This document shows positions 50,116 through 64,000 of a DNA stretch of 64,000 bases, one piece after another. The notes under the pieces are model-generated. The model worked only from the letters and a program-made list of their open reading frames with translations, was not told where the DNA came from and did not search any database. Both the position numbers and the translations under genes were made by a program. The stretch is taken from contig OZ244561.1 of NCBI GenBank assembly GCA_965217585.1, positions 1,137,424 to 1,201,423 on the forward strand. The letters run 5' to 3'. Within the stretch, counting starts at the first letter, position 1, and each line of letters starts with the position of its first letter. The stretch is from Candidatus Latescibacterota bacterium (GTDB lineage Bacteria > Latescibacterota > UBA2968 > UBA8231).

Positions 50116-51405
50116 ATGAAACGCAGAGCATTCTTCAAAGGAATCGCCGCAGCCGCAGCCGCAGCCCCGCTCCTTCCCGACGTGGCCGCCGGACTTACCG
50201 AGCGACTCGGCACCCTCGGCCAAGACGTAGCGGCCGCCAGCAACGAGCGCGCCCTGTGGCAGCGGCTGCGGCGAGAGTTTCGTCTGCACCCAGGGCTAGT
50301 GCATCTCAACTGCGGCAGTATTGGGGCGACGCCTCGCGTGGTAACTGACGCCCTGACCTCATACCTCGCCGAACTGGAGGGCAATCCACTGGCCAACACC
50401 TGGGGCGGCCTCGGCAGCGAGATGGAAACAGTGCGGGCCAAGGGGGCGGAGTTCATCGGGGCCGAGCTAGACGAAATCGCGCTGACGCGCAATACAACCG
50501 AAGGCATGAACCACGTAGCCAGCGGCCTCGACCTCCAGCCGGGCGACGAGGTGCTGACGACAAATCACGAGCACGGCGGCGGCATGGTCTGCTGGCAGCA
50601 CTTGGCGCGCACTCGCGGCGTCGTAGTTCGCTACATCAAAATGCCCAATCCCGTGCGCGATGCCGCCGAGATCCTGCAACTAGTAGAGGATCACCTAACG
50701 CCGCGCACCCGCGTGTGCAGCTTCTGTCACATCGATACCATCACCGGACTGCAAATGCCACTAACAGCCATCGCCGCCCTCACCCAACCCCGCGACATCC
50801 TGCTGGTCTGCGACGGCGCGCAGGCCCCGGGCATGATCGACGTCGACGTCAAAGCCCTCGGCGTAGACACCTATGCCTCCAGCAGCCACAAGTGGATGCT
50901 CGCTCCCAAGGGCACGGGACTGCTCTACATCCGCAGGGAAGTGCAAGATCGCGTCCGGCCCGTGTTCACCTATTCCGGTTACAACGCCTATTCCGCCTCG
51001 TCCGGCACCCGCAACGTGCCGCAGATCGTCGCACACGGGGTGGCGATGGAATTCCACAACACCATCGGCCGCCCGCGCATCGAAGCGCGCTGCCGCCAGC
51101 TCTGCGCCTACGCGCGCCAGCGCCTAGCGGAAATCCCCCAACTCACACCGATCACCCCACCCCAGCACGAGCTGTCCTCGGGCATCGCCAGCTTCTCGCT
51201 CACCAGCGGCAGCCACAGCGAAGTCGTCGCCGCGCTGCAAAAGCGCGACATCTTCCTCAAACCAGCACAGGGCACGTACGCCTACGTGGAGGACGCCGGC
51301 GTGCCAAAGGAAAACTACAACGCCATCCGCATCTCCACGCACATCTTCAACGACGAGACCGACATCGACCGCGCTGTCGAGGCGTTGCAGCAAGTCCTCG
51401 GCTGA
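50116..51405 (+). CDS. Class-V aminotransferase-fold PLP enzyme (cysteine desulfurase / isopenicillin-N-epimerase-like) with a Tat signal
   Basis: The N-terminus MKRRAFFKGIAAAAAAAPLL has a twin-arginine motif. The PLP-lysine region is SSHKWMLAPKGTGLLY. Confidence 0.85.
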   Translation: MKRRAFFKGIAAAAAAAPLLPDVAAGLTERLGTLGQDVAAASNERALWQRLRREFRLHPGLVHLNCGSIGATPRVVTDALTSYLAELEGNPLANTWGGLGSEMETVRAKGAEFIGAELDEIALTRNTTEGMNHVASGLDLQPGDEVLTTNHEHGGGMVCWQHLARTRGVVVRYIKMPNPVRDAAEILQLVEDHLTPRTRVCSFCHIDTITGLQMPLTAIAALTQPRDILLVCDGAQAPGMIDVDVKALGVDTYASSSHKWMLAPKGTGLLYIRREVQDRVRPVFTYSGYNAYSASSGTRNVPQIVAHGVAMEFHNTIGRPRIEARCRQLCAYARQRLAEIPQLTPITPPQHELSSGIASFSLTSGSHSEVVAALQKRDIFLKPAQGTYAYVEDAGVPKENYNAIRISTHIFNDETDIDRAVEALQQVLG

Positions 51406-51436
51406 TAGACCCACCCCTCTTTGACCTTCCTTCCCC

Positions 51437-51464
51437 GTAGGGGCGACCGGCCGGTCGCCCCTAC
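51437..51464. repeat. REP-like GC-rich palindrome, near-identical to 25436..25463
   Basis: The sequence gtaggggcgaccggccggtcgcccctac differs by 1 nt from the 25436 copy. It lies 32 nt after the stop of 50116..51405. Confidence 0.65.
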
Positions 51465-51550
51465 GTCTTTGAACGAAATGGCGACCTAATCCGTATAAAT
51501 AGATGTGAACAATCTCAGGGCCGCAGGCTAAAACTCGTCTGGATTCTCCT

Positions 51551-52078
51551 ATGGGCTGGAGCGACGAAGCATTGATGGAAAACCTCCGCCGAGGAGATAT
51601 GCAGGCGTTTGACGAACTCTACACGCGCCATCGCCAGCCCCTTTTCAATTTTATCTTGCGGCTCTTGCAGGACGCGGCCTTGGCAGAAGATGTGTTTCAG
51701 GAGACCTACATGCGCGTATTGGAAAACGCCGACCGCTTCAAGCCTCGGGGCAAATTTTCGACCTATCTCTATACCATAGCCCACAACCTGTGCATGGACG
51801 AACTGCGCCGCCAAAGCACGAGCATTCCAGCCGAGCAAATGGCCGTGCCATCAGCTCGTAGCCCCCACGACCATCTGCTCAAGCGAGAAGACGAAGAAGC
51901 CGCACACCAACTGCTCGCGGCCCTGCAACCCCACTTGCGCGCCATAGTCGTCCTCCGCGTCCTACACGATTACTCGCAGGAAGAGACCGCGAAAATCGTC
52001 GGCGTACCCGTCGGAACCGTCAAAAGCCGTTTGCACCACGCCCTAAAACAATTGCGCCAAATGGCACCGAACCCATGA
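51551..52078 (+). CDS. ECF-type RNA polymerase sigma-70 factor
   Basis: Region 2 is DVFQETYMRVLEN...YLYTIAHNLCMDELRR. Region 4 is YSQEETAKIVGVPVGTVKSRLHHALKQLR. Confidence 0.9.
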   Translation: MGWSDEALMENLRRGDMQAFDELYTRHRQPLFNFILRLLQDAALAEDVFQETYMRVLENADRFKPRGKFSTYLYTIAHNLCMDELRRQSTSIPAEQMAVPSARSPHDHLLKREDEEAAHQLLAALQPHLRAIVVLRVLHDYSQEETAKIVGVPVGTVKSRLHHALKQLRQMAPNP

Positions 52079-52425
52079 ACCAAGACCGCCGCACCATACA
52101 AGAGATTCGAGCGCTGTTGGGCTCTGTACCCGAAGTGCAGCTGCCGCCTAGACTAGACGAGGAAGTGCGGTCTAAAGCCGTGAGTTGGGCCAGAAAAAGG
52201 CGGGCCGAGGAAGCGCGACTCCACATCCCCCTTTACGGTAAAATCGCCCTAGGACTAGTCGCCTTGGAATTGTTCGCCCTGCTCTACGCCGTAGGCCCAA
52301 GGCTCGACATTGACCAGATCATACGAGCCTCTGTCCTCGGCTTAGTCGGCTTGAACATCGCCGCGCTGTTGACGAGCCCGATTATTCTTTTACACCGCCA
52401 AAGAAGGGAGCTATCCCATGAATGA
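52075..52425 (+). CDS. Putative membrane anti-sigma factor
   Basis: ATGA overlap with the sigma-factor gene. Short cytoplasmic N-terminus followed by two TM helices. No ZAS motif seen. Confidence 0.5.
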   Translation: MNQDRRTIQEIRALLGSVPEVQLPPRLDEEVRSKAVSWARKRRAEEARLHIPLYGKIALGLVALELFALLYAVGPRLDIDQIIRASVLGLVGLNIAALLTSPIILLHRQRRELSHE

Positions 52426-53329
52426 ACGCCTGAAAGATACTCTGCATCGATGGCTGCCCAAGCTGACCATCTTGAGCGTGCTGGTTCTTCTCACATCTTC
52501 CCTGATCAACGAATACTACGTGGATCCAAGGTACGACGCCGCTGCAAAAGAAGATCTCGACAAACGGCACCAGCACCTTCAGGAATACAAGGAGAAAAAG
52601 GAGGCAAAGGCAGTCGCGCTTAAAGCCGCCCTAGAGCGGATCGTGGGCCTCATAGATACACTCGACGGTAACGTGCAGACTCAAGAGACTCTGAGTAAAG
52701 CAGTGGCCCAAGAAGAAGCCATCGGCGAGGTGTGGGTGACCAATGCCCAGGGCCTCATTGTGTATTACGGCCGGCATATCCCCCCGGTGCGCAATGTCGC
52801 AGATTTTCCCCTTGGGTCCCTGACTAAGATATTGAATATGGTCCCCGAAGATGTGATTTCACCCATACAGCGGACCGCTATCCTATTGCCTACGATAATC
52901 GGGGGTCATTGGTCTAGGGTCTCGCCTTCATTTTCCTCTTTAAGTGTCGGCATCGACATGATCCCAAAGCACCTAATCATTTCAACGGAAGAACCCATTT
53001 CAAGATACGGCGGTGAGCTTGTAGAAATGAACCGCGTCAAGGATGGCTTAATCGCCGCGACGGTCTCGCGGTCGCAGTATAACCCTCCGCTTCAGGAGAG
53101 AAGCGAGGAAAGCGAAAGACTCAGTCTTTTGCTCAATACGACCGGAATTGCGGCCCTAGCCGGCTTTATCCTCTTCTGGCTCTCCATCCCTGCGTGGATG
53201 GCCTTGGACGCCCAAAAGAGACGGGAAAGAGCCACGGTTTGGGGCATCTTCGGTCTCTTGGGCAATATGATCGCCTTGGTCGTCTATTTGCTAGTGCGCG
53301 AAGATGAGCCGCCGTCTGAAAATTCCTAG
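52418..53329 (+). CDS. Membrane protein of unknown function with a PLDc_N-like C-terminal TM pair
   Basis: 8-nt overlap with the upstream gene. N-terminal TM helix. C-terminal ...WGIFGLLGNMIALVVYLLVRE. Confidence 0.6.
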   Translation: MNERLKDTLHRWLPKLTILSVLVLLTSSLINEYYVDPRYDAAAKEDLDKRHQHLQEYKEKKEAKAVALKAALERIVGLIDTLDGNVQTQETLSKAVAQEEAIGEVWVTNAQGLIVYYGRHIPPVRNVADFPLGSLTKILNMVPEDVISPIQRTAILLPTIIGGHWSRVSPSFSSLSVGIDMIPKHLIISTEEPISRYGGELVEMNRVKDGLIAATVSRSQYNPPLQERSEESERLSLLLNTTGIAALAGFILFWLSIPAWMALDAQKRRERATVWGIFGLLGNMIALVVYLLVREDEPPSENS

Positions 53330-53399
53330 CGAGCCAACGCGGCAGTCACCAAGAATTTGTCACGCCTAAAGGCGCGGTGAAGCAGACGGCTGCTAAGCC

Positions 53400-54398
53400 T
53401 CAGCGCCGGTTCCCCCCCTCGGGTCCGATCTCGCCCGTACCCACCCCAACGCCCGTGAGCACCTCGCTGTAGCCGGGATAGGTGACGGCGTATTGGAATC
53501 CCTCGTTGGTGCCCGCCGCGCCAAAGCGGCCCTGCTTGTCGAGCGCGACGAAGTTGAGGTGCAACTCCTCGACCGGACGCGGGTCGAGCGCGATGATGCG
53601 GCGGATGGTCTCGACGCAGGCTTCCTCCGGGTGCAGCCCCTGGCGCATGTACTCGACCGCGAGGAAAGTGGCGCAGTAGCGCATGACATTTTCGCCCAAA
53701 CCAGTGGCCCCGGCCGCGCCCACGCCCCCAGCGACGTACAAGCCGCTGCCGATGATCGGCGAGTCGCCGACGCGGCCCGGCAGCTTGTAGCCCCAGCCAC
53801 TGGTCGAGCAGCCGCCAGCGATCCGCCCCTCACCGTCGAGTCCAAGTAGAGCGATAGTATCGTGATTGTCGGCCGCGCCCTGCTTTTCCCGCCATTCCTC
53901 CCACGCCTTGCGCCTTTCTTCCGTCAGCAAATCGACGCTGGCAAAACCCTGCTCCAGCGCGAACTGCCGCGCACCTTCGCCGACGAGCATGACGTGCTTG
54001 GTCTCGTCCATCACCCGGCGCGCCACCGAGATCGGGTGCAGGATTCCCTCGATAGCGGCGACGCTGCCGGCGCGTTGCCCCTCGCCGTCCATAATGCAGG
54101 CGTCGAGTTGCACCACGCCCCGGGCGTTGGGTATGCCCCCCAATCCCACGGATGCATTGGAGGCGTCGGCTTCGGCGACGTGGATGCCGCGCTCGACCGC
54201 GTCGAGGACCGAGCCGCCCTGTTCGGCGATCCGCAGCGATTGTTCGTTGGCGGCTTTGCCAAAGGGCCACGTAGAAATAAAGAGGGGACGAGCAGTGTTC
54301 ATGGGAATGTCCTTTTCCGCGCGCGCCGTCCCGGCGAGGGCTAGGCCGCCGGCGGCTAGTGCGGTCTCGCGCATGAAGCGACGGCGACTCAGCGGCAT
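53400..54398 (-). CDS. Ntn-hydrolase asparaginase-2 family (glycosylasparaginase / isoaspartyl peptidase-like), Tat signal
   Basis: Tat motif MPLSRRRFMRETALAAGGLALAG. The autoprocessing region is HDTIALLGLDGEGRIAGGCSTSGWGYKLPGRVGDSPIIGSGLY. Confidence 0.85.
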   Translation of the reverse strand: MPLSRRRFMRETALAAGGLALAGTARAEKDIPMNTARPLFISTWPFGKAANEQSLRIAEQGGSVLDAVERGIHVAEADASNASVGLGGIPNARGVVQLDACIMDGEGQRAGSVAAIEGILHPISVARRVMDETKHVMLVGEGARQFALEQGFASVDLLTEERRKAWEEWREKQGAADNHDTIALLGLDGEGRIAGGCSTSGWGYKLPGRVGDSPIIGSGLYVAGGVGAAGATGLGENVMRYCATFLAVEYMRQGLHPEEACVETIRRIIALDPRPVEELHLNFVALDKQGRFGAAGTNEGFQYAVTYPGYSEVLTGVGVGTGEIGPEGGNRR

Positions 54399-54401
54399 GG
54401 C

Positions 54402-54911
54402 CTAATCCTCGTCGGCACCCTCATGGTGTTCATCGCCATCCTCGTCGGCACCGTCATGGTGACCATCGCCATCCTCGTCATTATCATCGTCGTCCTCCTT
54501 ATAGGCGATGGCGGCGATCTCGACGCGAAAGTCGAAGACGATCTGCGCCCCGCCGGTGCAGGCCCGCGCCGGGAATTGCTCTTTAAAGTGGGAAGCGTAT
54601 GCCTTGTTCATCTCGTGATAATCTTCAATGTCCGCAAGCCAGACGGTGACGTTGACCAAATCATCGTACGCATAGCCGTGTTCTTCAAGTATCCGCCCGA
54701 TATTTTCCATGATCTGGTGGGTCTCGGCCGCGACCGACTCCTTGACGTCGGCACCATCGGCCGTGCGGGCGATCTGGCCGCTGATGAAGAGAAAGTCGTC
54801 GGCTTGGCGGGCCGGGCTGAAGGGCAGCTTCTTGAGCGGCACGGCCTCTTGGGCAAAGACTGGCGAGACGGCGAGCGCACACGCGAGCGCGGCGCGGATA
54901 CAGCTTTTCAT
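54402..54911 (-). CDS. RidA/YjgF family protein with a signal peptide and an acidic His-rich C-terminal tail
   Basis: Signal peptide MKSCIRAALACALAVSPVFAQ. The RidA core is LFISGQIA...NVTVWLADIEDYHEMNKAY...ARACTGGAQI. The tail is ...DGDGHHDGADEDGDEHHEGADED. Confidence 0.8.
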   Translation of the reverse strand: MKSCIRAALACALAVSPVFAQEAVPLKKLPFSPARQADDFLFISGQIARTADGADVKESVAAETHQIMENIGRILEEHGYAYDDLVNVTVWLADIEDYHEMNKAYASHFKEQFPARACTGGAQIVFDFRVEIAAIAYKEDDDDNDEDGDGHHDGADEDGDEHHEGADED

Positions 54912-55043
54912 AAGGTATCTCCTGGTGTCGAGTTAGACCTGTTAATAAGCTCAATGGGACATGCGGCGACAACCGGCGCGGGTCGCCGATGCGAGCCGGG
55001 CCAGCATTCTTTCTACTTGAAATAACGACGTTACTGTATTTTA

Positions 55044-55072
55044 TTGACAGAGATATGGTCCGCGCTTACTTT
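55044..55072 (+). promoter_or_regulatory. Possible sigma-70 promoter at the left edge of the low-G+C island
   Basis: TTGACA (55044-55049), 17-nt spacer, TACTTT (55067-55072), about 50 nt upstream of ATG 55124. Pattern match only. Confidence 0.25.
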
Positions 55073-55123
55073 TATGCTGCACAGAATTTCACCGTTATCA
55101 CCCCGATTAAGGAGCTCTCAATT

Positions 55124-55327
55124 ATGACTGAATCGACCTCCCTCGACCACGGCGAGCGCATCGGCCGCCTCGAAGGTATCATCGAACAAATTAACGAGCG
55201 CCTCAACAGCATAACCCGTCGCCTCGATAGCCTAGAAAGCAACCACCGTCGAGACTTTCGCTGGCTCATCGGCCTTCAGTTGGCTACTTGGGGCACGATA
55301 GTAGGTTTGAAACTATTTGGTGGATAG
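55124..55327 (+). CDS. Small tail-anchored coiled-coil protein
   Basis: RBS AAGGAG. 67 aa with a coiled-coil segment IGRLEGIIEQINERLNSITRRLDSLESN and a C-terminal TM helix. Same architecture as 14992..15384. Confidence 0.5.
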   Translation: MTESTSLDHGERIGRLEGIIEQINERLNSITRRLDSLESNHRRDFRWLIGLQLATWGTIVGLKLFGG

Positions 55328-55339
55328 CCGCCACATCAT

Positions 55340-55933
55340 TTGAAACCTGACGATTGCAAGTTGTTAAAGACGCTTAAAGATATAGCCCGCGTCCAGATGG
55401 GCCTTTCCTTTCGTTCTCGCATTGAGCCGGAAGCGGATGGGACTGTTGCAGTCATTCAGATGCGCGACTTGACCGAGGATAATAAATTGAGCCACCGCAA
55501 TCTGATCACTATTAAAATGAGCGGCCTCGGCGACCGCCATTTGGTCAAACGCAGAGATTTGATTTTTCGCTCCAGAGGGCAGACCACTACGGCGGCAATT
55601 ATTGATACGGAAATAGGTCCGGCGATTGTCGCAGCCCCTCTATTGAGAGTCCGAGTTACGAGCAAACACGTCCTACCGGAGTACCTGTGCTGGTTCGTCA
55701 ACCAGCCGCTAGCGCAGGCGTTTTTGCACAGCAGAGCTACCGGGACGGCGATGACTGTGATTGGCAAGTCCGCCCTCGATGATTTGGAAGTGCCCCTGCC
55801 CGATCTTGAAACTCAAGAGCAAATCGTCGCCCTGGCCGATTTGTCAAATCAAGAGCAGAGGCTGATGAGGGAGTTGGCGGAGAAGAAGGAAAAACTAGTC
55901 AACGGGATTCAGATGCGATTGGCAACTAAATAG
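55340..55933 (+). CDS. hsdS: Type I restriction-modification specificity subunit, half-size (single TRD)
   Basis: A TRD-like body followed by the conserved helix LPDLETQEQIVALADLSNQEQRLMRELAEKKEKLVNGIQ. Lies 12 nt upstream of hsdM. The start (TTG 55340) is uncertain. Confidence 0.7.
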   Translation: MKPDDCKLLKTLKDIARVQMGLSFRSRIEPEADGTVAVIQMRDLTEDNKLSHRNLITIKMSGLGDRHLVKRRDLIFRSRGQTTTAAIIDTEIGPAIVAAPLLRVRVTSKHVLPEYLCWFVNQPLAQAFLHSRATGTAMTVIGKSALDDLEVPLPDLETQEQIVALADLSNQEQRLMRELAEKKEKLVNGIQMRLATK

Positions 55934-55945
55934 GAGCAGCAAGAT

Positions 55946-57496
55946 ATGAGCGATCAGATCCAACAGAAAGACATCAACAGCGCCGCTTGGGCGGCCTGCG
56001 ACACCTTTCGCGGGGTAATGGATGCGGCTGGATACAAAGATTACATCCTCGTGATGCTATTCCTCAAATACATCTCCGATGTCTGGAAAGACCACTACGA
56101 GGAATATCAAGAAAGATACGGCGACAACGATGAGCGCATCCGGCGCAGGCTGCAAAACGAGCGCTTTGTCCTGCCAGAAGACAGCAGCTTTTACGACCTC
56201 TATAAACAGCGCTCGGAAGCCAACATTGGCGAACTCATCAATATCGCGCTGGAGGCGATTGAAACGGAGAACAAAGAGAAACTGGAAGATGTTTTCCGCA
56301 ATATAGATTTCAACAGCGAGGCCAATCTCGGCAAAACCAGAGACCGCAATCGCCGCCTGAAAATGCTGCTGGAAGATTTCAATAAACCCGAATTGAACAT
56401 GAGCCCCAGCCGCGTTTCAGAAGACGTCATCGGCAACACCTACATCTACCTAATCGAGCGTTTCGCCTCCGACGCGGGCAAAAAAGCCGGCGAGTTCTAT
56501 ACGCCGCACAAGGTGTCGGAGCTGGTGGCGCGACTGTGCGCTCCCAAGCCCGGAGCCCGCATCTGCGATCCCGCCTGCGGTTCTGCGGGGCTGCTGATTG
56601 AAGCGGCCCGGCTGGTGGGCGGCAGGGACTATGCCCTGTACGGCATGGAGGTGAACGGCAGCACTTGGGCACTGGCGCGGATGAACATGTTTCTGCACGG
56701 TGCCGACTCCGCCCGCATCGAATGGTGCAACACCCTTACCTCCCCGGCACTGGTGGAAAACAACCAACTGATAAAGTTCAACAACGTGGTCGCCAATCCG
56801 CCGTTTTCGCTCGACAAGTGGGGCGCAGAAGACGCCGATGCGGACCCGTACAACCGCTTTTGGCGCGGGGTGCCGCCCAAATCCAAGGGGGACTATGCTT
56901 TTATCAGTCACATGGTGGAAGCGGCTTTGGAAAAAGAGGGGCGGGTTGCGGTGGTGGCTCCGCACGGGGTTTTGTTTCGGGGCGCTGCTGAAGGGCGCAT
57001 TCGCCAGCAGCTCATTGAAGAAAACTTGCTCGATGCCGTCATCGGCTTGCCCGGCAATCTGTTCCCCACAACCTCGATACCGGTGGCCGTTTTGGTCTTT
57101 GACCGCTCGCGTGAACAAGGAGGCGCGAACGAGAACCGCAAAGACGTTCTGTTTGTCGATGCAAGCCGCGAATATCAGGCGGGTAAGAATCAAAACACCT
57201 TGCTAGACGAGCACCTCGAAAAGATCACCGCTGCTTATGAAAAACGCGAAGATGTGGAAAAATACGCCCACCTCGCCACCCTTGAGGAAATCGCGGAAAA
57301 TGACTTCAACCTGAACATTCCGCGCTACGTGGACACCTTTGAGGAAGAGGAGGAGATTGATATTGATGCGGTGGGAAGAGAGATCGACCAGTTGGAAAAG
57401 GAATTGAGTGTGGTGCGTGGGGAAATGGGGAGGTTGTTGCAGGGGATTGATCGGGGGGAAGGTTTAGGACAGATTGATAGGATCTCGACCCTATGA
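55946..57496 (+). CDS. hsdM: Type I restriction-modification N6-adenine DNA methyltransferase subunit
   Basis: HsdM_N-like N-terminus. Motif I is DPACGSAGLL. Motif IV is VVANPPFSLDKW. Confidence 0.95.
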   Translation: MSDQIQQKDINSAAWAACDTFRGVMDAAGYKDYILVMLFLKYISDVWKDHYEEYQERYGDNDERIRRRLQNERFVLPEDSSFYDLYKQRSEANIGELINIALEAIETENKEKLEDVFRNIDFNSEANLGKTRDRNRRLKMLLEDFNKPELNMSPSRVSEDVIGNTYIYLIERFASDAGKKAGEFYTPHKVSELVARLCAPKPGARICDPACGSAGLLIEAARLVGGRDYALYGMEVNGSTWALARMNMFLHGADSARIEWCNTLTSPALVENNQLIKFNNVVANPPFSLDKWGAEDADADPYNRFWRGVPPKSKGDYAFISHMVEAALEKEGRVAVVAPHGVLFRGAAEGRIRQQLIEENLLDAVIGLPGNLFPTTSIPVAVLVFDRSREQGGANENRKDVLFVDASREYQAGKNQNTLLDEHLEKITAAYEKREDVEKYAHLATLEEIAENDFNLNIPRYVDTFEEEEEIDIDAVGREIDQLEKELSVVRGEMGRLLQGIDRGEGLGQIDRISTL

Positions 57497-57771
57497 GCTT
57501 GCGCTTTGAGTGGGATATCAATAAGGCAACTGCTAACGTGGCAAAGCACAATGTGAGTTTTGCAGAAGCAGCCACTGTATTTCGCGATCCAATTGCTGCT
57601 ATTTTCGATGATGAAGCTCACTCAAACGAGAAACGTAGAGAATTCATCATTGGACATTCCGATAAGAACCATTTGCTTTTAGTATGCTTCTCTGAGCGAG
57701 ACGATGCCATCCGCATTATCAGTGCTCGGCAAGCAACAAGGAGGGAACGCCAAGATTATGAAGAATACTGA
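57493..57771 (+). CDS. brnT: BrnT-family type II toxin
   Basis: The segment FEWDINKATANVAKHNVSFAEAATVF...RIISARQATRRERQDYE is the BrnT signature as I recall it. ATGA overlap with the hsdM stop. Confidence 0.85.
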   Translation: MSLRFEWDINKATANVAKHNVSFAEAATVFRDPIAAIFDDEAHSNEKRREFIIGHSDKNHLLLVCFSERDDAIRIISARQATRRERQDYEEY

Positions 57772-57997
57772 ATCCGTTAAACAGACCGCTGGCGCAGCGG
57801 ATGAGATGCGAGATGAATACCAGTTCGACTACAGTAAGGCGAAGCCCAACCGCTTTGCGGACAAAATTGGACGCGAGCAGTTGATGGTCGTTCTCGATCA
57901 AGACGTCGCGGCTGTATTCAAGACTCCTGAATCTGTTAACCAAGTACTGCGAGCGATTATCACCTCAATGCCAATCGCGGAAAAAGGAGATAGCTAA
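57758..57997 (+). CDS. brnA: BrnA-family antitoxin
   Basis: Overlaps the brnT 3' end. The sequence is ...DEYQFDYSKAKPNRFA...VVLDQDVAAVFKTPESVNQVLRAII. The start at ATG 57758 follows AAGGAGGGA. Confidence 0.75.
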   Translation: MKNTESVKQTAGAADEMRDEYQFDYSKAKPNRFADKIGREQLMVVLDQDVAAVFKTPESVNQVLRAIITSMPIAEKGDS

Positions 57998-58009: not shown

Positions 58010-58402
58010 ATGAGACGACGAGAAGCCCGCCTCATTTTGGGTGTAGCTGAGGACGCCACCACAGAGGCGATAAAGTCGGCGTTTCGCCGCTATGCCCTCA
58101 AGCATCACCCCGACCGCAACCCGAACAACCCGGTTGCCGAAGAGGCATTTAAGAAGGGTGCTCATGCCTATCGCTTGCTGACGGGACAGGAGGGGACCGA
58201 TCTGGATGAATTGTTAGAGCAGTTTGACGATATAGAGCAGGCCCTCGACCAAATGAAGCAGTCCTTTGACGAATTTGGAAAAAATATGTCAGAAGGACTC
58301 GACCGGATCGAAACCAAGATGTCCCGCATGTTTAAGTGGACCATCTTCTTGATGATTTTCACGACCCTATCGTTGGTTCTTCTCATTCTGCTCGATTTCT
58401 GA
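58010..58402 (+). CDS. J-domain (DnaJ-like) protein with a C-terminal TM anchor
   Basis: The J-domain is ILGVAEDATTEAIKSAFRRYALKHHPDRNPNNP, with the HPD motif. The C-terminal helix is WTIFLMIFTTLSLVLLILLDF. Confidence 0.75.
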   Translation: MRRREARLILGVAEDATTEAIKSAFRRYALKHHPDRNPNNPVAEEAFKKGAHAYRLLTGQEGTDLDELLEQFDDIEQALDQMKQSFDEFGKNMSEGLDRIETKMSRMFKWTIFLMIFTTLSLVLLILLDF

Positions 58403-58538: not shown

Positions 58539-59333
58539 ATGGGCAAGAAACCCTCAAAAAATCTTACCATCCGCAATAGCACGGCGGAGTTTCTGATCTT
58601 CACCCGTCAGTCCGGCAGGGGAGGAATTGAGGTTCGCTATGAGGATGAGACTATCTGGCTGACGCAGAAACTGATGGCGGAGTTGTTTAGCACGGCAAAA
58701 TCCACCATCAGCGAACATTTGGGCAATATCTACGCCTCTGGAGAACTGACTAAAAACTCAACTGTTCGGAAATTCCGAACAGTTCAAAGGGAAGGAAATC
58801 GCGATGTTGAACGAGATCTGGATTACAACAGGGACGCGCCGACCACCCGCGAGTTTTTCGCCAGAGTGCAAAACAAGCTGCATTATGCCATTCACGGCCA
58901 TACTGCGGCGGAATTGATCCAACAGCGAGCCGATGGAAAAAAGAAAAACATGGGATTGACCAGTTGGGAAAACAGTCCCGACGGCAAAATCCTGAAGTCT
59001 GATGTGTCTGTCGCCAAAAACTACCTATCGAAAGAAGAGCTGGAATCTCTTGGGCGGATCGTCAACGCCTATATTGACCTCGCCGAAGACCGGGCACAGC
59101 GCAAAATTCCGATGACGATGGAGGACTGGTCAAAACGGCTCGATATATTTCTCGAAGCTTTTGACCGTCAGATACTGCAAGACAGCGGACGAGTCAGTGC
59201 CGAGATTGCCAAGACCCATGCCGAAAGCGAGTTTGAGAAATACCGGGTTGTTCAGGATCGTTTGTTTGAATCTGATTTTGATAGAGAAACCAAGAGACTG
59301 GAACAGCAACTGAGCCGAAAAGACGGGGGGTAA
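58539..59333 (+). CDS. RhuM-family protein, apparently with an internal in-frame deletion
   Basis: The N-terminus NSTAEFLIFTRQSG...IEVRYEDETIWLTQKLMAELF and the C-terminal half TREFFARVQNKLHYAIHGHTAAELI...MGLTSW match RhuM. The central block normally between ...YNLD and IDYD... is missing. Confidence 0.75.
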   Translation: MGKKPSKNLTIRNSTAEFLIFTRQSGRGGIEVRYEDETIWLTQKLMAELFSTAKSTISEHLGNIYASGELTKNSTVRKFRTVQREGNRDVERDLDYNRDAPTTREFFARVQNKLHYAIHGHTAAELIQQRADGKKKNMGLTSWENSPDGKILKSDVSVAKNYLSKEELESLGRIVNAYIDLAEDRAQRKIPMTMEDWSKRLDIFLEAFDRQILQDSGRVSAEIAKTHAESEFEKYRVVQDRLFESDFDRETKRLEQQLSRKDGG

Positions 59334-59336
59334 GGG

Positions 59337-59423
59337 ATGAGTAGGAAGACGGCGAAAGAAGATGCGTTGCCGAAGAGGTGGCGAGAAGTGAGTTTTCAAA
59401 GAGACAATTTTATTGGAAATTAG
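59337..59423 (+). pseudogene. hsdS: 28-codon relic of an hsdS 5' end
   Basis: MSRKTAKEDALPKRWREVSFQRDNFIGN* contains the conserved HsdS N-terminal LPxxW(x)xV(x)L/F motif (compare 60362: VLPKEWRSVRL). Stop at 59421-59423. Confidence 0.45.
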
Positions 59424-59454
59424 CATAGATACACTCAGCGGAAAGGACAGAGAC

Positions 59455-59883
59455 ATGAGCAAGAGACCTTCAGAAAATCCTGCCGGGATTGTCCATGAGC
59501 CCAATGTCTTATACCGTCGAAAAGAGAGACTTACCTGGGGCCATATTATCCCCAACTACTACTCGTGGCCGATGGACAATATCCCGACCGTCACTACCCG
59601 CAAGCGCGGCGATGAGGCCATCACCTACGACACAACCAAGTTGGATTCGATATATGAGCCTATGATCTGTCGGAATACGATCATACGGACTGAGATTATC
59701 TCTAAGGCCAGAGTCTCAGATGATCGTGCGGACAGGCTTGTACAACTATTGCAGTCATGGATAGACGAGGGGGATGAAGAAGAACAGCGAGAAACGCTTG
59801 AATATCTCATTCACGCTTTGGATGAAGATCGGCTATCCAACCGCAAGCTGTTCCCAAAGGAACTGAAAGGAAAGAGTTGGTAA
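59455..59883 (+). CDS. Putative antitoxin partner of the PIN toxin (start uncertain)
   Basis: The C-terminal ...RLVQLLQSWIDEGDEEEQRETLEYLIHALDEDRLSNRKLFPKE resembles antitoxins paired with PIN toxins. The stop overlaps the PIN start. Alternative in-frame starts are 59572 and 59662. Confidence 0.5.
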   Translation: MSKRPSENPAGIVHEPNVLYRRKERLTWGHIIPNYYSWPMDNIPTVTTRKRGDEAITYDTTKLDSIYEPMICRNTIIRTEIISKARVSDDRADRLVQLLQSWIDEGDEEEQRETLEYLIHALDEDRLSNRKLFPKELKGKSW

Positions 59884-60326
59884 GCCAGACCGTACTACTC
59901 GATAGTGGCCCCCTCGGTCTACTAACCAATCCAAATGTATCGGAATCGGCCACACAATGTGTAAAATGGCTTCAAAAGGTGGCAACTAGCGGCGCGACAG
60001 TGATGGTGCCAGAGATAGCCGATTACGAGATTCGGCGTGAGTTACTTAGAGCAAGAAAGACCGAAGGTATTAGGCGGCTTGACAATCTCATTTCTCAAAC
60101 CGATTACTTAGCGATCACGACTACTGCTATGCGCCAAGCCGCTGATTACTGGGCTGAGGCTCGTCAGCAAGGTCGAGCAACGGCAGATGATAAAGCACTT
60201 GATGGCGACGTGATCTTAGCAGCGCAAGCGGTAACACTAGATCGAGCAAATGTAGTTATCGCAACGACGAACGTAAAGCACCTGTCTCGTTTCACTCAAG
60301 CGATGCTTTGGTCCGATATCGGTTAG
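59877..60326 (+). CDS. PIN-domain (VapC-like) toxin
   Basis: VLLDSGPLGLL (first acidic residue), VPEIADYEIRREL, LDGDVILAAQA and VIATTNVKHLSRF. TTG start overlapping the upstream stop. Confidence 0.8.
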   Translation: MVSQTVLLDSGPLGLLTNPNVSESATQCVKWLQKVATSGATVMVPEIADYEIRRELLRARKTEGIRRLDNLISQTDYLAITTTAMRQAADYWAEARQQGRATADDKALDGDVILAAQAVTLDRANVVIATTNVKHLSRFTQAMLWSDIG

Positions 60327-60361
60327 AAATTTTGAACAGTTCAAAAGGGATTTTGTAGAAG

Positions 60362-61162
60362 ATGATAAAAAATGACGTATTGCCGAAGGAATGGCGGTCT
60401 GTGAGGCTAGCGGATGCTTGTGAGGTCATTGTTAGCTCTGTTGACAAAAAGACCGTCGATGGGGAATTACCCGTCCAATTATGCAATTACACAGATGTTT
60501 ATTACCACAACGATATTGGTTGTGATATTGACTTCATGGCTGCTACAGCTAAACCTTTAGAGATAGAAAAATTTTTGCTTATTGAAGGTGATGTAATCAT
60601 TACCAAAGATTCTGAAACACCTGATGACATTGGTGTTCCTTCCTATGTTAAAGAAACCATCGATAATCTGTTATGCGGCTATTATTTAGCAATTCTTCGA
60701 CCAAATAAGCAAACGATAGGAAAATATGTTTGTTATGCCTTGACTTCTCCGAGAGTAAAATATGATTTTTATAGATTTGCTAATGGAATTACACGCTTTG
60801 GACTTACAACAGAATCCTATAAAAAAATTAAGATACCACTCCCTCCACTATATGAACAGAAAGCCATTGCGTCTTTACTGGAAACATGGGATACGGCGAT
60901 AGAGAAAACCGAATCACTGATCGCGGCGAAGGAGAAGCAATTTAAGTGGCTGCTGAAAACTCTTATTAGCGACCAACAGGATAATCCTGAATGGCGAAAG
61001 GTGAAGCTGGAGGAATTAGGTGCAATTCATTCTGGCGGAACGCCATCAACTCAAGATAGCAGCAATTGGAATGGAGATATTTTTTGGCTCACTCCATACC
61101 GCACTCAAAAACGTGGCCTGATGCAGAAATTGCTGACGGGAAAATGGCGAATAAGGAATTAA
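60362..61162 (+). CDS. hsdS: Type I R-M specificity subunit with most of TRD2 deleted
   Basis: N-terminus VLPKEWRSVRLADA. TRD1, then central helix LPPLYEQKAIASLLETWDTAIEKTESLIAAKEKQFKWLLKTLIS. TRD2 begins (WRKVKLEELGAIHSGGTPST...GDIFWLTP) but jumps after ~35 aa to the distal conserved end (RGLMQKLLTGKWRI). Confidence 0.8.
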   Translation: MIKNDVLPKEWRSVRLADACEVIVSSVDKKTVDGELPVQLCNYTDVYYHNDIGCDIDFMAATAKPLEIEKFLLIEGDVIITKDSETPDDIGVPSYVKETIDNLLCGYYLAILRPNKQTIGKYVCYALTSPRVKYDFYRFANGITRFGLTTESYKKIKIPLPPLYEQKAIASLLETWDTAIEKTESLIAAKEKQFKWLLKTLISDQQDNPEWRKVKLEELGAIHSGGTPSTQDSSNWNGDIFWLTPYRTQKRGLMQKLLTGKWRIRN

Positions 61163-61179
61163 AGCACAGGGTGATGAGT

Positions 61180-64000
61180 ATGGCTAAACTACAACGAAAT
61201 TATTCACAGAAGACATTAAAAATTCTGTTCGGTTTGAGTGGAAATCAATGCGCTCATCCAAAGTGTACGAATAATGTGATCGAGCCGGCCACTGAGAAAT
61301 CTGACGCTGCTGTCATTGCTCAAATATGCCACATTTATGCGATTAGTGACGATGGCCCAAGAGGTAAGGCTGGAATTACCAATGAAGAATTGAATTCTCC
61401 AGAGAATCTAATTTTACTTTGTCCGACTCATCATACGGTAGTGGATAATCAATATGAAACCTATCCGGCTGAAATGCTCAAACAGTGGAAGCAGGATCAC
61501 GAATCTAAAGTGGTGAAGAATCGGCTCTCCGCCAGCCTAGATAATGTCTCTTCAAATATGTTTCATCATTCTTATTTTCCAACGGAGCTTGTTGACCAGA
61601 AAATTAAGGATGAGACCGATATACTCCGTAAATCTCGTTTTTTTGAAGATTTTGACAGGATTGGCTTTTCATTAACACTCGCAAGAAAGCTGATAGAAGG
61701 TGAACTTTCGGGAGGAACGGATTCGGTAAGAAGTCAAGCATTAGCTTGGTGTGTGCGAATTCTGTCACGTACTAAAGAATTGGATAAAGCAGAAAAGTAT
61801 CTCGAGTACGCGAAGAAATTAGGAACTTGTCAGGAAATAGATATAGCAGACGCCTTTATATCGTCACAGAAAGGCGATAGAAAAGCTGCTCTAAGTTCTC
61901 TGGCTAATATCGACTCACCGATGTCTCGGTCCGCAGCGCTTATGATCGTTGCAAACCACGATGGCCCACAGGGAGCTCTTAACTGGTTAAAGACAGTCAA
62001 TATAGACGCCACTGATCTGGACCCTGATGGTAAACGCTTCCTATTGGGATGTCAGCTTGAGCTCTCCGATTGGGAAACAGCTCAGAAAAGTCTTGATGCG
62101 TTGACTGATGACGATTTACGCGCTGCCCCTGTTCTCCATCACATCGTAGCAATTACACACCTCCTTAAAGCAGTGCCTGTAGAATTGCGAGCCATTGTGC
62201 GTGATCAACCACCGTTTGAGGCGGCGGCTTTCCCTCTTGACTCGGGTCCTAATGGGATTGAAGCACGCCAGTTAGCGCACCGTATCTTTATCGACGCTGC
62301 GGAGGTTGCACGTCAACTAGACTGTCCCCTTGCAGAAAACATTGACGATGAGTATGCACTTTGGCTTGAACTTAAAGATCCCGATCCCGATAAATGCGCT
62401 GAAGGAAGAAGGCGTCTGGAGTCCAAACTTCGCGATCTCAAGACCTATCTACGTCTTGTTCGTTTTGGTCTTCAATTCGGAATAAAATTGGATAATAAGG
62501 TGGTCGAACAGGAAATAGAACGACAAATTGCCCTTAACGGAAAAATTACCTATGACACCGCAATTGCTCGCTTTGCTCTAGTTCAAACACAACAGACACC
62601 GGAGGATGCCGCAAACTATATAGCTCAGTACCACGACGAATTTGCCGACTACATAGATAAGAAAATTATATTGTCTTTCCAAATTGAACTTTTTTTAAGA
62701 ACAGGACAGCTTAATAAGGCAAATGAGTGCTTGGATACTCTTACAAGAGAGGGCCTTTCTGAGGCCGAGAAAAATAGACTCCAGATAATAATTGCTCAAG
62801 CAGAAGGAGCTTCTCCGGTTGAGGCTCTCAAGAAACAGTTCAAGAAAACGAGCTCTCTAAGTGATTTGGGAATTCTCGTTGACGAACTCGAAACTAGAAA
62901 TGACTGGAACGAAATTTGCGAGTATGGCAATATTCTGTTTGAGAGAACCCACGAATTACGCGACGCAGAGCGGTTGGCAATCGCTTTACACAATACACAG
63001 AAGCTGGAACGACTTGTAGAGTTTATAGAATCGAATAAGACACTTTTGTCAGAGTCCAAGCGACTCCAACTGATCCATTGCTGGTCTTTATATAATGAGG
63101 GTGAACTACTAGAGGCTAGCTCTGAATTGACTAAACTGGACGATGATTGGGATAATGAGAACTACCGTACATTACAGATTAATCTTGCAGTCTCTCTAGG
63201 AGACTGGAACTCTCTTTCTGCTTTTATCGCTAAAGAATGCAATGAGAAAGACAAGAGGAACGCTAAGGAATTAATAACCGCTGCTCGACTGGCCCTTCAT
63301 TTGGGCTCTATCCCCCATGCAGAAGAGTTGATATTTGCAGCGGCAGAGAGGGGGAAAGATGATGCCAATGTATTAGGATCGGCTTACTTTCTTGCAGCAA
63401 GTGCCGGTCTAGAAGATGACCCGGAGGTCGCTCAGTGGATTCAGAAAGCCACCGTACTTTCTGGCGAGGATGGCCCACTCCAGATGATGACACTGAGTAA
63501 TTTATTGGACAAAAAACCCGAGTGGGATCGCCAAGCATCTGAGATATGGGAGATGTTGATCCGTAATGAGCTTCCGATGTTTCTTGCAGCTCAATCCCTC
63601 AATAAGTCCCTTAGCGATTTGATGCTTTTTCCCGCTTTGGCTAACCCGTCGGAGAGCGATCCACGGTGCAGAGGTATTATTCCCGCATATAGCGGCCAGC
63701 GGCAATCGCTATCCTTCGATACTGATAGGCAGATTGGAATAGATGCAACCGCATTACTCACCTTGAGCTTTCTGAATCTGCTCGATGAGGCCCTGGACGC
63801 TTTTGATACAGTCCATATACCGCATTCAACTCTTGGTTGGCTTTTTGATGAGAAAAAGAGGGTTGCATTTCATCAGCCAAGTCGGATTAGAGACGCGGCT
63901 CAGATAAGTCGTTTGCTGACCAACGATGTATTAGAGAAACTCTCTCCGAGTACTGTGCCCAATAGTGATTTGTCCGTCCAAGTTGGAGAAGAGCTAGCAC
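61180..64000 (+). CDS. Giant HNH-nuclease-domain protein with a long helical-repeat body (3' end outside the window; not in the supplied ORF track)
   Basis: My own translation from ATG 61180 is open for 940 codons to the window end. The N-terminus is MAKLQRNYSQKTLKILFGLSGNQCAHPKCTNNVIEPATEKSDAAVIAQICHIYAISDDGPRGKAGITNEELNSPENLILLCPTHHTVVD, which fits CxxxxC...H...N...CxxHH, an HNH beta-beta-alpha-Me motif. The rest is alpha-helical and TPR-like. No Walker A seen. Confidence 0.85.
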   Translation, partial: MAKLQRNYSQKTLKILFGLSGNQCAHPKCTNNVIEPATEKSDAAVIAQICHIYAISDDGPRGKAGITNEELNSPENLILLCPTHHTVVDNQYETYPAEMLKQWKQDHESKVVKNRLSASLDNVSSNMFHHSYFPTELVDQKIKDETDILRKSRFFEDFDRIGFSLTLARKLIEGELSGGTDSVRSQALAWCVRILSRTKELDKAEKYLEYAKKLGTCQEIDIADAFISSQKGDRKAALSSLANIDSPMSRSAALMIVANHDGPQGALNWLKTVNIDATDLDPDGKRFLLGCQLELSDWETAQKSLDALTDDDLRAAPVLHHIVAITHLLKAVPVELRAIVRDQPPFEAAAFPLDSGPNGIEARQLAHRIFIDAAEVARQLDCPLAENIDDEYALWLELKDPDPDKCAEGRRRLESKLRDLKTYLRLVRFGLQFGIKLDNKVVEQEIERQIALNGKITYDTAIARFALVQTQQTPEDAANYIAQYHDEFADYIDKKIILSFQIELFLRTGQLNKANECLDTLTREGLSEAEKNRLQIIIAQAEGASPVEALKKQFKKTSSLSDLGILVDELETRNDWNEICEYGNILFERTHELRDAERLAIALHNTQKLERLVEFIESNKTLLSESKRLQLIHCWSLYNEGELLEASSELTKLDDDWDNENYRTLQINLAVSLGDWNSLSAFIAKECNEKDKRNAKELITAARLALHLGSIPHAEELIFAAAERGKDDANVLGSAYFLAASAGLEDDPEVAQWIQKATVLSGEDGPLQMMTLSNLLDKKPEWDRQASEIWEMLIRNELPMFLAAQSLNKSLSDLMLFPALANPSESDPRCRGIIPAYSGQRQSLSFDTDRQIGIDATALLTLSFLNLLDEALDAFDTVHIPHSTLGWLFDEKKRVAFHQPSRIRDAAQISRLLTNDVLEKLSPSTVPNSDLSVQVGEELA

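Follow-up and report, generated by a model that had tools for sequence, protein, structure and literature searches.

The window analysed here is a stretch of 64,000 nucleotides from a Candidatus Latescibacterota bacterium (contig OZ244561.1, positions 1,137,424 to 1,201,423, forward strand), and it ends inside a large open reading frame (ORF) that starts at position 61180, immediately behind the hsdS gene of a Type I restriction-modification (R-M) operon. We consider it likely that this ORF covers the 5' two-thirds of a gene whose product is the large subunit of an anti-phage module, made up of two genes, horizontally mobile and belonging to the TGP (TPR-GreA/B-C-PIN) class. Membership in that class, as a split subtype, is very well supported by the domain profiles that the protein matches, and a role in defence is probable. 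The analysis provides a name and a testable model for a large gene that is usually annotated as 'hypothetical protein' or 'HNH endonuclease', and whose family comprises about 1,200 clusters at 50% identity across bacteria and in one archaeal metagenome-assembled genome (MAG).

The reading frame and its domains

Translated by us from the ATG at 61180, frame 1 of the plus strand contains 940 sense codons and is free of stops to the end of the window; the remaining two forward frames hold 57 and 94 stops over the same span. The frame had been missing from the mechanically produced list of ORFs because it runs past the window end and such ORFs are not listed. A search of public proteins returned P0001, a protein of 1,369 aa whose residues 1-940 are identical to the window translation. 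The reading frame is therefore a real gene, as an earlier note on this DNA had maintained from its own translation, and positions 61180-64000 (plus strand) hold the first 940 of its 1,369 codons. The gene has 44.6% GC and the window 59.1%; the entire hsd island is poorer in GC than its flanks. The start codon lies 17 nt past the hsdS stop at 61162, and the spacer between them (61163-61179, plus strand) carries a purine-rich GGTGATGAG stretch ahead of the ATG. A promoter and terminator scan of this junction gave no signal above shuffled expectation; hence the gene is probably co-transcribed with hsdS in this Latescibacterota genome.

Judged from sequence, the full-length protein consists of an HNH head, a TPR-like (tetratricopeptide-repeat-like) solenoid of about 650 aa, a helix-turn-helix (HTH) domain, two successive PIN segments (PIN1 and PIN2) and a helical tail. 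PADLOC and PDB matches, together with conservation, identify the head (61180-61560, plus strand; residues 1 to about 127) as an HNH nuclease of the Cap5/SPARHA/PDC-M68A type. Residues 46-87 match Pfam HNH_2 (26.6 bits, cutoff 21), and E-values of 1e-14 to 1e-41 are reached with PADLOC models of HNH effectors. Within PADLOC, residues 6-124 match PDC-M68A, the CBASS HNH effectors, SAVED-HNH and SduA. The best of these matches, to the 253-aa PDC-M68A (E 2.5e-41), is aligned over profile positions 3-120 only, which is the HNH domain, and the protein is not a member of that family over its full length. The motif core had been placed by the earlier note at residues 24-89 (nt 61249-61446), with C24, C29, H51, N76 and C81-P-T-H84-H85, and this placement proved correct: C24, C29, C50, H51, N76, C81, H84, H85 and D89 are conserved in all 31 aligned HNH-headed homologues. 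The head thus possesses both the catalytic His/Asn of His-Me finger nucleases and the Zn-binding Cys/His set.

The closest solved relatives of the head by sequence (phmmer against PDB sequences) are the SPARHA HNH domain (9om4, E 3.8e-19) and CBASS Cap5 (7rwm, E 4e-6). Cap5 (CBASS SAVED-HNH; 7rwk, 8fm1) and SPARHA, in which the HNH is associated with a short pAgo, belong to the same HNH clade and share the catalytic His/Asn and Zn-binding Cys residues. Their nucleases are inactive until a sensor drives oligomerisation into tetramers or filaments (PMC12738770). They differ from the 61180 protein in that their sensor is SAVED or pAgo-APAZ, in place of the TPR-HTH-PIN-PIN chain with its GreAB-C partner, and homology to them is limited to residues 1 to about 125.

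Behind the head lies a TPR-like alpha-solenoid (61567-63492, plus strand; residues about 130-771), presumably a scaffold or sensor. We relied here on the AlphaFold2 model of a close homologue, P0077, built on a 36-sequence alignment. In this model residues 130-770 or so are all-helical, with hairpins every 33-35 aa or thereabouts (period about 34 aa) and pLDDT values of 80-90; Pfam matches in the body are weak (TPR_19, ARM_TT21). The earlier suggestion of a TPR-like helical body is borne out by this helical-hairpin solenoid, although the period is slightly shorter than the 35-40 aa proposed.

The C-terminal part of the chain connects the protein to the TGP class. Residues 772-841 (63493-63702, plus strand) match PF24407, HTH_upstream_double_PIN, with an E-value of 1.5e-23 and 83 bits against a cutoff of 27. 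Directly after this match comes the stretch IGIDATALL... (residues 852-881, nt 63733-63822), in which a PIN-like nuclease had been called, weakly, near 63733-63860. The call pointed in the right direction. Behind the strong HTH match the stretch forms the start of PIN1, of which residues 854-940 lie in the window (63739-64000, plus strand), and which from residue 854 onwards matches the first 41 positions (2-42) of PF20698, the 'PIN domain associated with the TPR-GreAB-C-PIN system', below threshold. PIN2, at residues 1033-1147 and beyond the window, covers the whole PF20698 profile in P0001: the family scores 56.5 bits in the full-length protein and 48.4 bits in PIN2 alone, against a cutoff of 27.8. 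Alignment of homologues revealed conserved acidic residues in both segments, namely D855, E891 and D977 in PIN1 and D1035, E1067, E1086, D1138, D1139 and D1165 in PIN2. The tail of about 220 aa that follows PIN2 in P0001, outside the window, matches no family.

A partner gene and exchangeable effector heads

The key component of the system is encoded just past the window end: a conserved partner protein, for which docking on RNA polymerase (RNAP) is predicted and of which we found no description in the published TGP paper. In L001, the metagenomic contig that encodes P0001, a gene for a 640-aa protein is located directly downstream of the large gene and is followed by a PDC-S01 (AAA_14/DUF4143) ATPase gene, hsdR and a YgjP-like gene. 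Residues 49-98 of this partner match PF24388, 'Permuted_GreAB-C', with 42.7-50 bits against a cutoff of 27, and the same family matches the partner from Agrobacterium. The partner ATG overlaps the TGA of the large gene (TGATG), with GAGGAGG just upstream, an arrangement indicative of translational coupling of the two genes. The predicted structure of the partner (pLDDT 86, pTM 0.85) combines a small beta-domain at residues 43-107 with an all-alpha solenoid.

Linkage of the two genes was surveyed in one genome per species, giving 63 loci, of which 8 were too short for the presence of a partner to be judged. Among the 55 informative loci the partner sits directly downstream in 37 and is fused in frame to the large protein in 14 (one ORF of 1,860-2,235 aa); the remaining 4 carry a disrupted module. 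Adjacent or fused in 51 of the 55, it is an obligate partner of the large subunit. The earlier note had proposed that a downstream partner gene be sought, and the one found proves central to the system. Fused forms of about 1,900-2,200 aa also occur among independent gene calls. In three loci (L017, L049 and L057) several kilobases separate the large gene from its partner, and two of them, L049 and L057, have a large gene that is truncated as well; these look like insertions disrupting the module.

An exhaustive search with the head-less core (residues 130-940) returned 1,215 clusters at 50% identity; for 713 clusters E was 1e-30 or lower. The core begins at widely differing offsets among these homologues because the head is modular. 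An HNH head is present in about 27 of the 63 loci; other loci carry, on the same core, a TIR domain, a PNPase-type phosphorylase (PNP_UDP_1), Metallophos, a DUF676/abhydrolase serine esterase, a caspase or one of several unknown heads. In 16 loci (L017, L019, L020, L023-L025, L027, L029, L031, L035, L037, L038, L053, L055, L060 and L062) a short N-terminal peptide, 'KQSISSGDDS.NVIAGRD(V/I)N', stands in place of an enzymatic head. A regular-expression search of neighbouring genes revealed no second copy of this motif of the kind that a Bab-like protein would carry.

Homologues of 40-79% identity are distributed over many phyla, the closest (79%) being from Latescibacterota. Further hosts include Proteobacteria, Paenibacillus, Cohnella, Synechococcus, Thermotogae, Nitrospirota, Chloroflexia, Spirochaetia and one Thorarchaeota MAG. 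Three plasmid records hold full-length copies: two describe a 464-kb Agrobacterium fabrum plasmid of conjugative type, and the third comes from Methylophaga thalassica. RefSeq names both the large gene and the partner 'hypothetical protein' in the Agrobacterium record. Together with the low GC of the gene, this pattern of occurrence indicates that the module is horizontally mobile. In a search of phage genomes the module was absent, and distant matches were to the HNH head only. Genes flanking the module in other loci match pAgo+SIR2, MADS, AbiT, AriA, BrxA and Type I, II and III methyltransferases in PADLOC. The archaeal copy (L005, a 12-kb contig of a Candidatus Thorarchaeota MAG) is a complete HNH-headed module with 64% identity to the bacterial one, and reflects either inter-domain transfer or a binning contaminant.

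Relation to known systems and competing explanations

TGP conflict systems have been described as a variable N-terminal effector (HNH, REase, TIR, SIR2, PNPase, peptidases or EAD10) attached to a constant TPR - GreA/B-C - PIN chain and encoded mostly by standalone genes (Kaur, Burroughs, Iyer & Aravind, eLife 2021, PMC8195603). In the proposal of these authors, GreA/B-C docks on RNAP, PIN cuts the extruded transcript and the head provides an abortive backup (PMC8195603). The protein encoded at 61180 shares with these systems its repertoire of effector heads, the TPR-like solenoid, the TGP-specific divergent PIN and a patchy, wide phyletic spread, and its system, too, includes a GreA/B-C-type domain. 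It differs in carrying an HTH and two PIN segments where TGP proteins have a single PIN, with the HTH and PIN1 in the position of GreAB-C, and in its extra tail; the canonical single-chain, standalone TPR-GreAB-C-PIN organisation is not that of the large protein. The source tables of PMC8195603 list 'HNH+TPR+GreAB-C+PIN' and a single 'TPR+PIN+PIN' entry, and we did not find the split double-PIN organisation in the text of that paper, nor in its source tables under the architecture names searched. The papers searched yielded no description of a double-PIN/permuted-GreA form, which we met as Pfam models only, and the validated PIN systems of DefensePredictor are unrelated to the 61180 protein. 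The Pfam models are named for exactly these pieces, so curators must have seen the split double-PIN form. What is already known, then, is the TGP kind of system; what is under-described is its split, double-PIN subtype.

The earlier note could place the gene in no described defence family and offered it as a candidate novel defence gene. The placement can now be made, since the C-terminal domains match the TGP families PF24407 and PF20698, with PF24388 in the partner. The note had itself foreseen that a full-length match to a known family would overturn novelty, and the full-length protein does match the known TGP family. The defence part of the proposal fares better: effector swapping, low GC, defence-island neighbours and wide horizontal spread all speak for it.

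Several observations weigh against our assignment. The PIN1 match to PF20698 (E 2.9e-4, 18-21.5 bits) falls under the cutoff of 27.8. In the AlphaFold2 model the HTH-PIN region has pLDDT below 50, leaving the PIN folds to be assigned from profiles only, and profiles of PIN1 and PIN2 built from 51 diverse sequences each found no meaningful relative among PDB sequences. Compared with one another, these two profiles gave a weak, in-register match of their last helices (P 0.009-0.03). On the side of the partner, Foldseek of the model against the PDB returned generic, non-significant ARM/HEAT solenoid matches only; hhalign of its beta-domain against a single or tandem C-domain of E. coli GreA (approximate query sequence) produced a sensible alignment that is not significant (E about 0.8-0.9); and the GreA/B-C assignment comes from one curated Pfam model only. 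The canonical GreAB-C lies between TPR and PIN, whereas here it is circularly permuted and located on a separate 640-aa solenoid partner or fused C-terminally, and TGP genes are 'mostly standalone', in contrast to the obligate partner found here. PADLOC 2.0 has models for neither the large protein nor the partner beyond the HNH head, and the association with defence islands is qualitative only.

The only TGP protein with experimental data that we found is Agp, a canonical member from E. coli ECOR25, which with its partner Bab protects E. coli against T5, and in which mutations of GreA/B-C residues equivalent to those that bind RNAP lead to loss of defence (bioRxiv 10.1101/2024.11.07.622273). 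RNAP binding and anti-phage activity are documented for Agp/Bab alone. Agp and the 61180 protein have a sensor of the same family, and abortive-infection logic with a separate output module would be common to both; moreover, the short N-terminal peptide of many relatives recalls the N-terminal amyloid motif of Agp (BASS11). Agp differs in its length (1,094 aa) and its canonical TPR-GreAB-C-PIN order. It signals by amyloid templating to the small membrane-targeting Bab, while the 61180 protein has an HNH effector of its own and a different partner.

From these likenesses we infer a mechanism whose central parts (RNAP docking, RNA cleavage, the trigger and activation of HNH by oligomerisation) we put forward tentatively, at somewhat less than even confidence. 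The GreAB-C-like domain of the partner would dock the complex on RNAP, at the rim of the secondary channel. When a phage hijacks or modifies transcription, or when a phage factor binds the solenoids, the PIN domains would cut transcripts. The complex would then oligomerise and join its HNH heads, a step suggested by the finding that nucleases of this HNH clade become active only on higher-order oligomerisation, and the joined heads would degrade DNA and so cause abortive infection. The module itself is, in this genome, cargo inserted between hsdS and hsdR and does not depend on R-M. If the mechanism is right, the module would offer a convenient two-component system in which to study how RNAP is guarded against phage takeover and in what way a single sensor chassis can drive many different effectors.

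Membership in the same family could also go with a different logic, the main rival to our reading, which we regard as unlikely. The solenoids of both subunits would act as receptors that directly bind a protein or nucleic acid of the phage; the beta-domain would be structural or bind a target other than RNAP; the PIN segments would be degenerate scaffolds; and the swappable head would be the sole effector, activated by ligand-induced oligomerisation in the manner of an Avs/NLR system lacking an NTPase. Two long solenoids are indeed typical ligand-binding surfaces, and head swapping marks the head as the output module. Binding to RNAP is a prediction, the GreA similarity of the partner was not recovered independently, and of the PIN segments the first is sub-threshold and the second lacks a PDB relative by sequence. 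On the other hand, catalysis is favoured by the near-invariance, from phylum to phylum, of acidic residues where a PIN domain should have them; the match of the partner to the curated Pfam GreAB-C model lies well above the cutoff; and Agp mutations that mimic RNAP-binding-defective GreA abolish defence (bioRxiv 10.1101/2024.11.07.622273).

It is tempting to speculate further that the split double-PIN form with its permuted GreAB-C is more than a rearranged TGP, namely a mechanistically distinct two-subunit complex for RNAP surveillance. The solenoid and GreAB-C-like domain of the partner would sit on RNAP as a guard and would recruit the large subunit or activate it in trans. The conserved placement between hsdS and hsdR in Latescibacterota would then reflect functional coupling to restriction, with the complex as a PrrC-like backup for occasions when R-M is disarmed. 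We consider this extension improbable. PrrC is an anticodon nuclease for abortive infection that is embedded in the EcoprrI Type I R-M operon and held latent by its R-M complex. The two cases are alike in that a nuclease gene lies inside a Type I hsd operon and is, probably so for the 61180 gene, co-transcribed with it. PrrC depends on its R-M complex, however, whereas the 61180 module mostly occurs without any R-M, and a PrrC-like coupling is therefore unlikely.

Similarity to STAND/Avs (NLR-like) proteins is confined to general layout: the protein is large, its N-terminal effector can be exchanged and its C-terminal part is a repeat sensor. Those proteins are built around a P-loop nucleoside triphosphatase (NTPase) core. 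No Walker A motif is present in the 940-aa fragment or in the full 1,369 aa, and the full-length protein has no Pfam or PADLOC match to NTPase (NACHT/AAA) families. The identity was accordingly rejected, in agreement with the absence of Walker A already reported for the fragment.

That the two genes form a toxin-antitoxin or addiction module, with a PIN/HNH toxin neutralised by the 640-aa partner and serving to stabilise the island instead of sensing phages, is very improbable. The operon is tightly coupled, comprises two genes and encodes nuclease domains, and the surrounding island is rich in toxin-antitoxin genes such as BrnT and VapBC. Against this, both genes are very large, the in-frame fusion of partner and nuclease protein in 14 loci fits a labile antitoxin poorly, and a constant sensor chassis that carries varying effector heads characterises immune sensors and not toxin-antitoxin pairs. 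There is still less probability that the genes form a defence family unrelated to any described: no NCBIfam family matches or names the protein, RefSeq has 'hypothetical protein' for both genes, PADLOC recognises the HNH head only and the split double-PIN form is missing from the Kaur et al. tables under the names searched, but three Pfam families specific to the TGP type are matched above curated cutoffs, and the effector repertoire and head-solenoid-PIN layout agree with the published TGP description (PMC8195603).

The Type I operon and its mosaic cargo

The operon that hosts the insertion contains hsdM (55946-57496, plus strand; Pfam N6_Mtase and HsdM_N, PADLOC MTase_I) and includes a half-size hsdS of 266 aa with one target-recognition domain (60362-61162, plus strand; Pfam Methylase_S, PADLOC Specificity_I). 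The counterpart of hsdS in L002 encodes 394 aa. The earlier note remarked that the gene at 61180 sits where hsdR would be expected, a hint that the host R-M system might use the gene product as a restriction subunit, alternative to HsdR or replacing it, or as an obligate accessory. Such a role would accord with its position 17 nt past hsdS in the same orientation with no terminator between, and with the order hsdM...hsdS-[module]-hsdR shared by L001, L002, L003 and L006. This order recurs only in these closest Latescibacterota relatives, and in their contigs a complete hsdR (HSDR_N with ResIII/SWI2_SNF2) and YgjP follow downstream of the module. The large protein has no match to the HSDR_N nuclease or to the SF2 helicase (ResIII/SWI2_SNF2) of HsdR and no helicase or Walker motifs, and in about 50 other loci the module occurs where Type I genes are lacking altogether.

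A further Latescibacterota chromosome, L004 (OZ244790.1, 2-8770 and 9960-12818), shares the window flank at 47.5-55.0 kb with 86-90% identity. There the module follows the flank almost at once, and hsdM, hsdS and hsdR are all missing. Because L004 holds the module at the same site without these genes, the module is independent of R-M: it is cargo at a variable defence hotspot and not a substitute for hsdR. The restriction-subunit explanation is thereby largely refuted, and we judge it extremely improbable. More generally, a gene found 'in the hsdR slot' of a Type I operon will often be defence cargo in its own right and not a part of R-M.

Comparison with L001 suggests recent movement at this site. 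Window positions 59338-64000 are 99.0% identical to L001, as compared with only 88-95% for the chromosomal flanks (50896-57444), from which it appears that a block containing two small ORFs, hsdS and the module has been exchanged recently between related strains. The two small ORFs (59413-60326; 156 aa and 149 aa) overlap one another immediately ahead of hsdS, and a weak PIN match (E 0.005) was obtained for the second. They belong to the 99%-identical L001 block, recur in partly conserved form in L002, L006 and L056, and may represent a small toxin-antitoxin-like pair.

Other genes occupy the operon between hsdM and these ORFs. A BrnT ribonuclease toxin gene (57493-57771, Pfam E 7e-26) is located right behind hsdM and overlaps a 97-aa ORF (57704-57997) that may encode the BrnA antitoxin. 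This pair is absent from the otherwise syntenic L001, where different small genes sit, and the cargo of the hsd operon is therefore mosaic. After the pair comes a gene for a 130-aa DnaJ (J) domain protein (58010-58402), which in L001 is 95% identical in nucleotide sequence and lies directly behind hsdM. It is followed by a RhuM-family gene (58539-59333) that matches the PADLOC candidate system PDC-S05 with an E-value of 4e-102, a defence candidate within the same operon.

Downstream of the module, hsdR of L001 (17341-20533, in a contig of 7x coverage) is divided into two ORFs of 668 and 403 aa, whereas L002, L003 and L006 have a single ORF of 1,063-1,121 aa; the split gene is either a frameshift pseudogene or an assembly error. 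The PDC-S01 ATPase gene that lies between partner and hsdR (L001 16087-17292, L003 16613-17827; E 6e-172 to the PADLOC model) is further independent cargo of the same operon.

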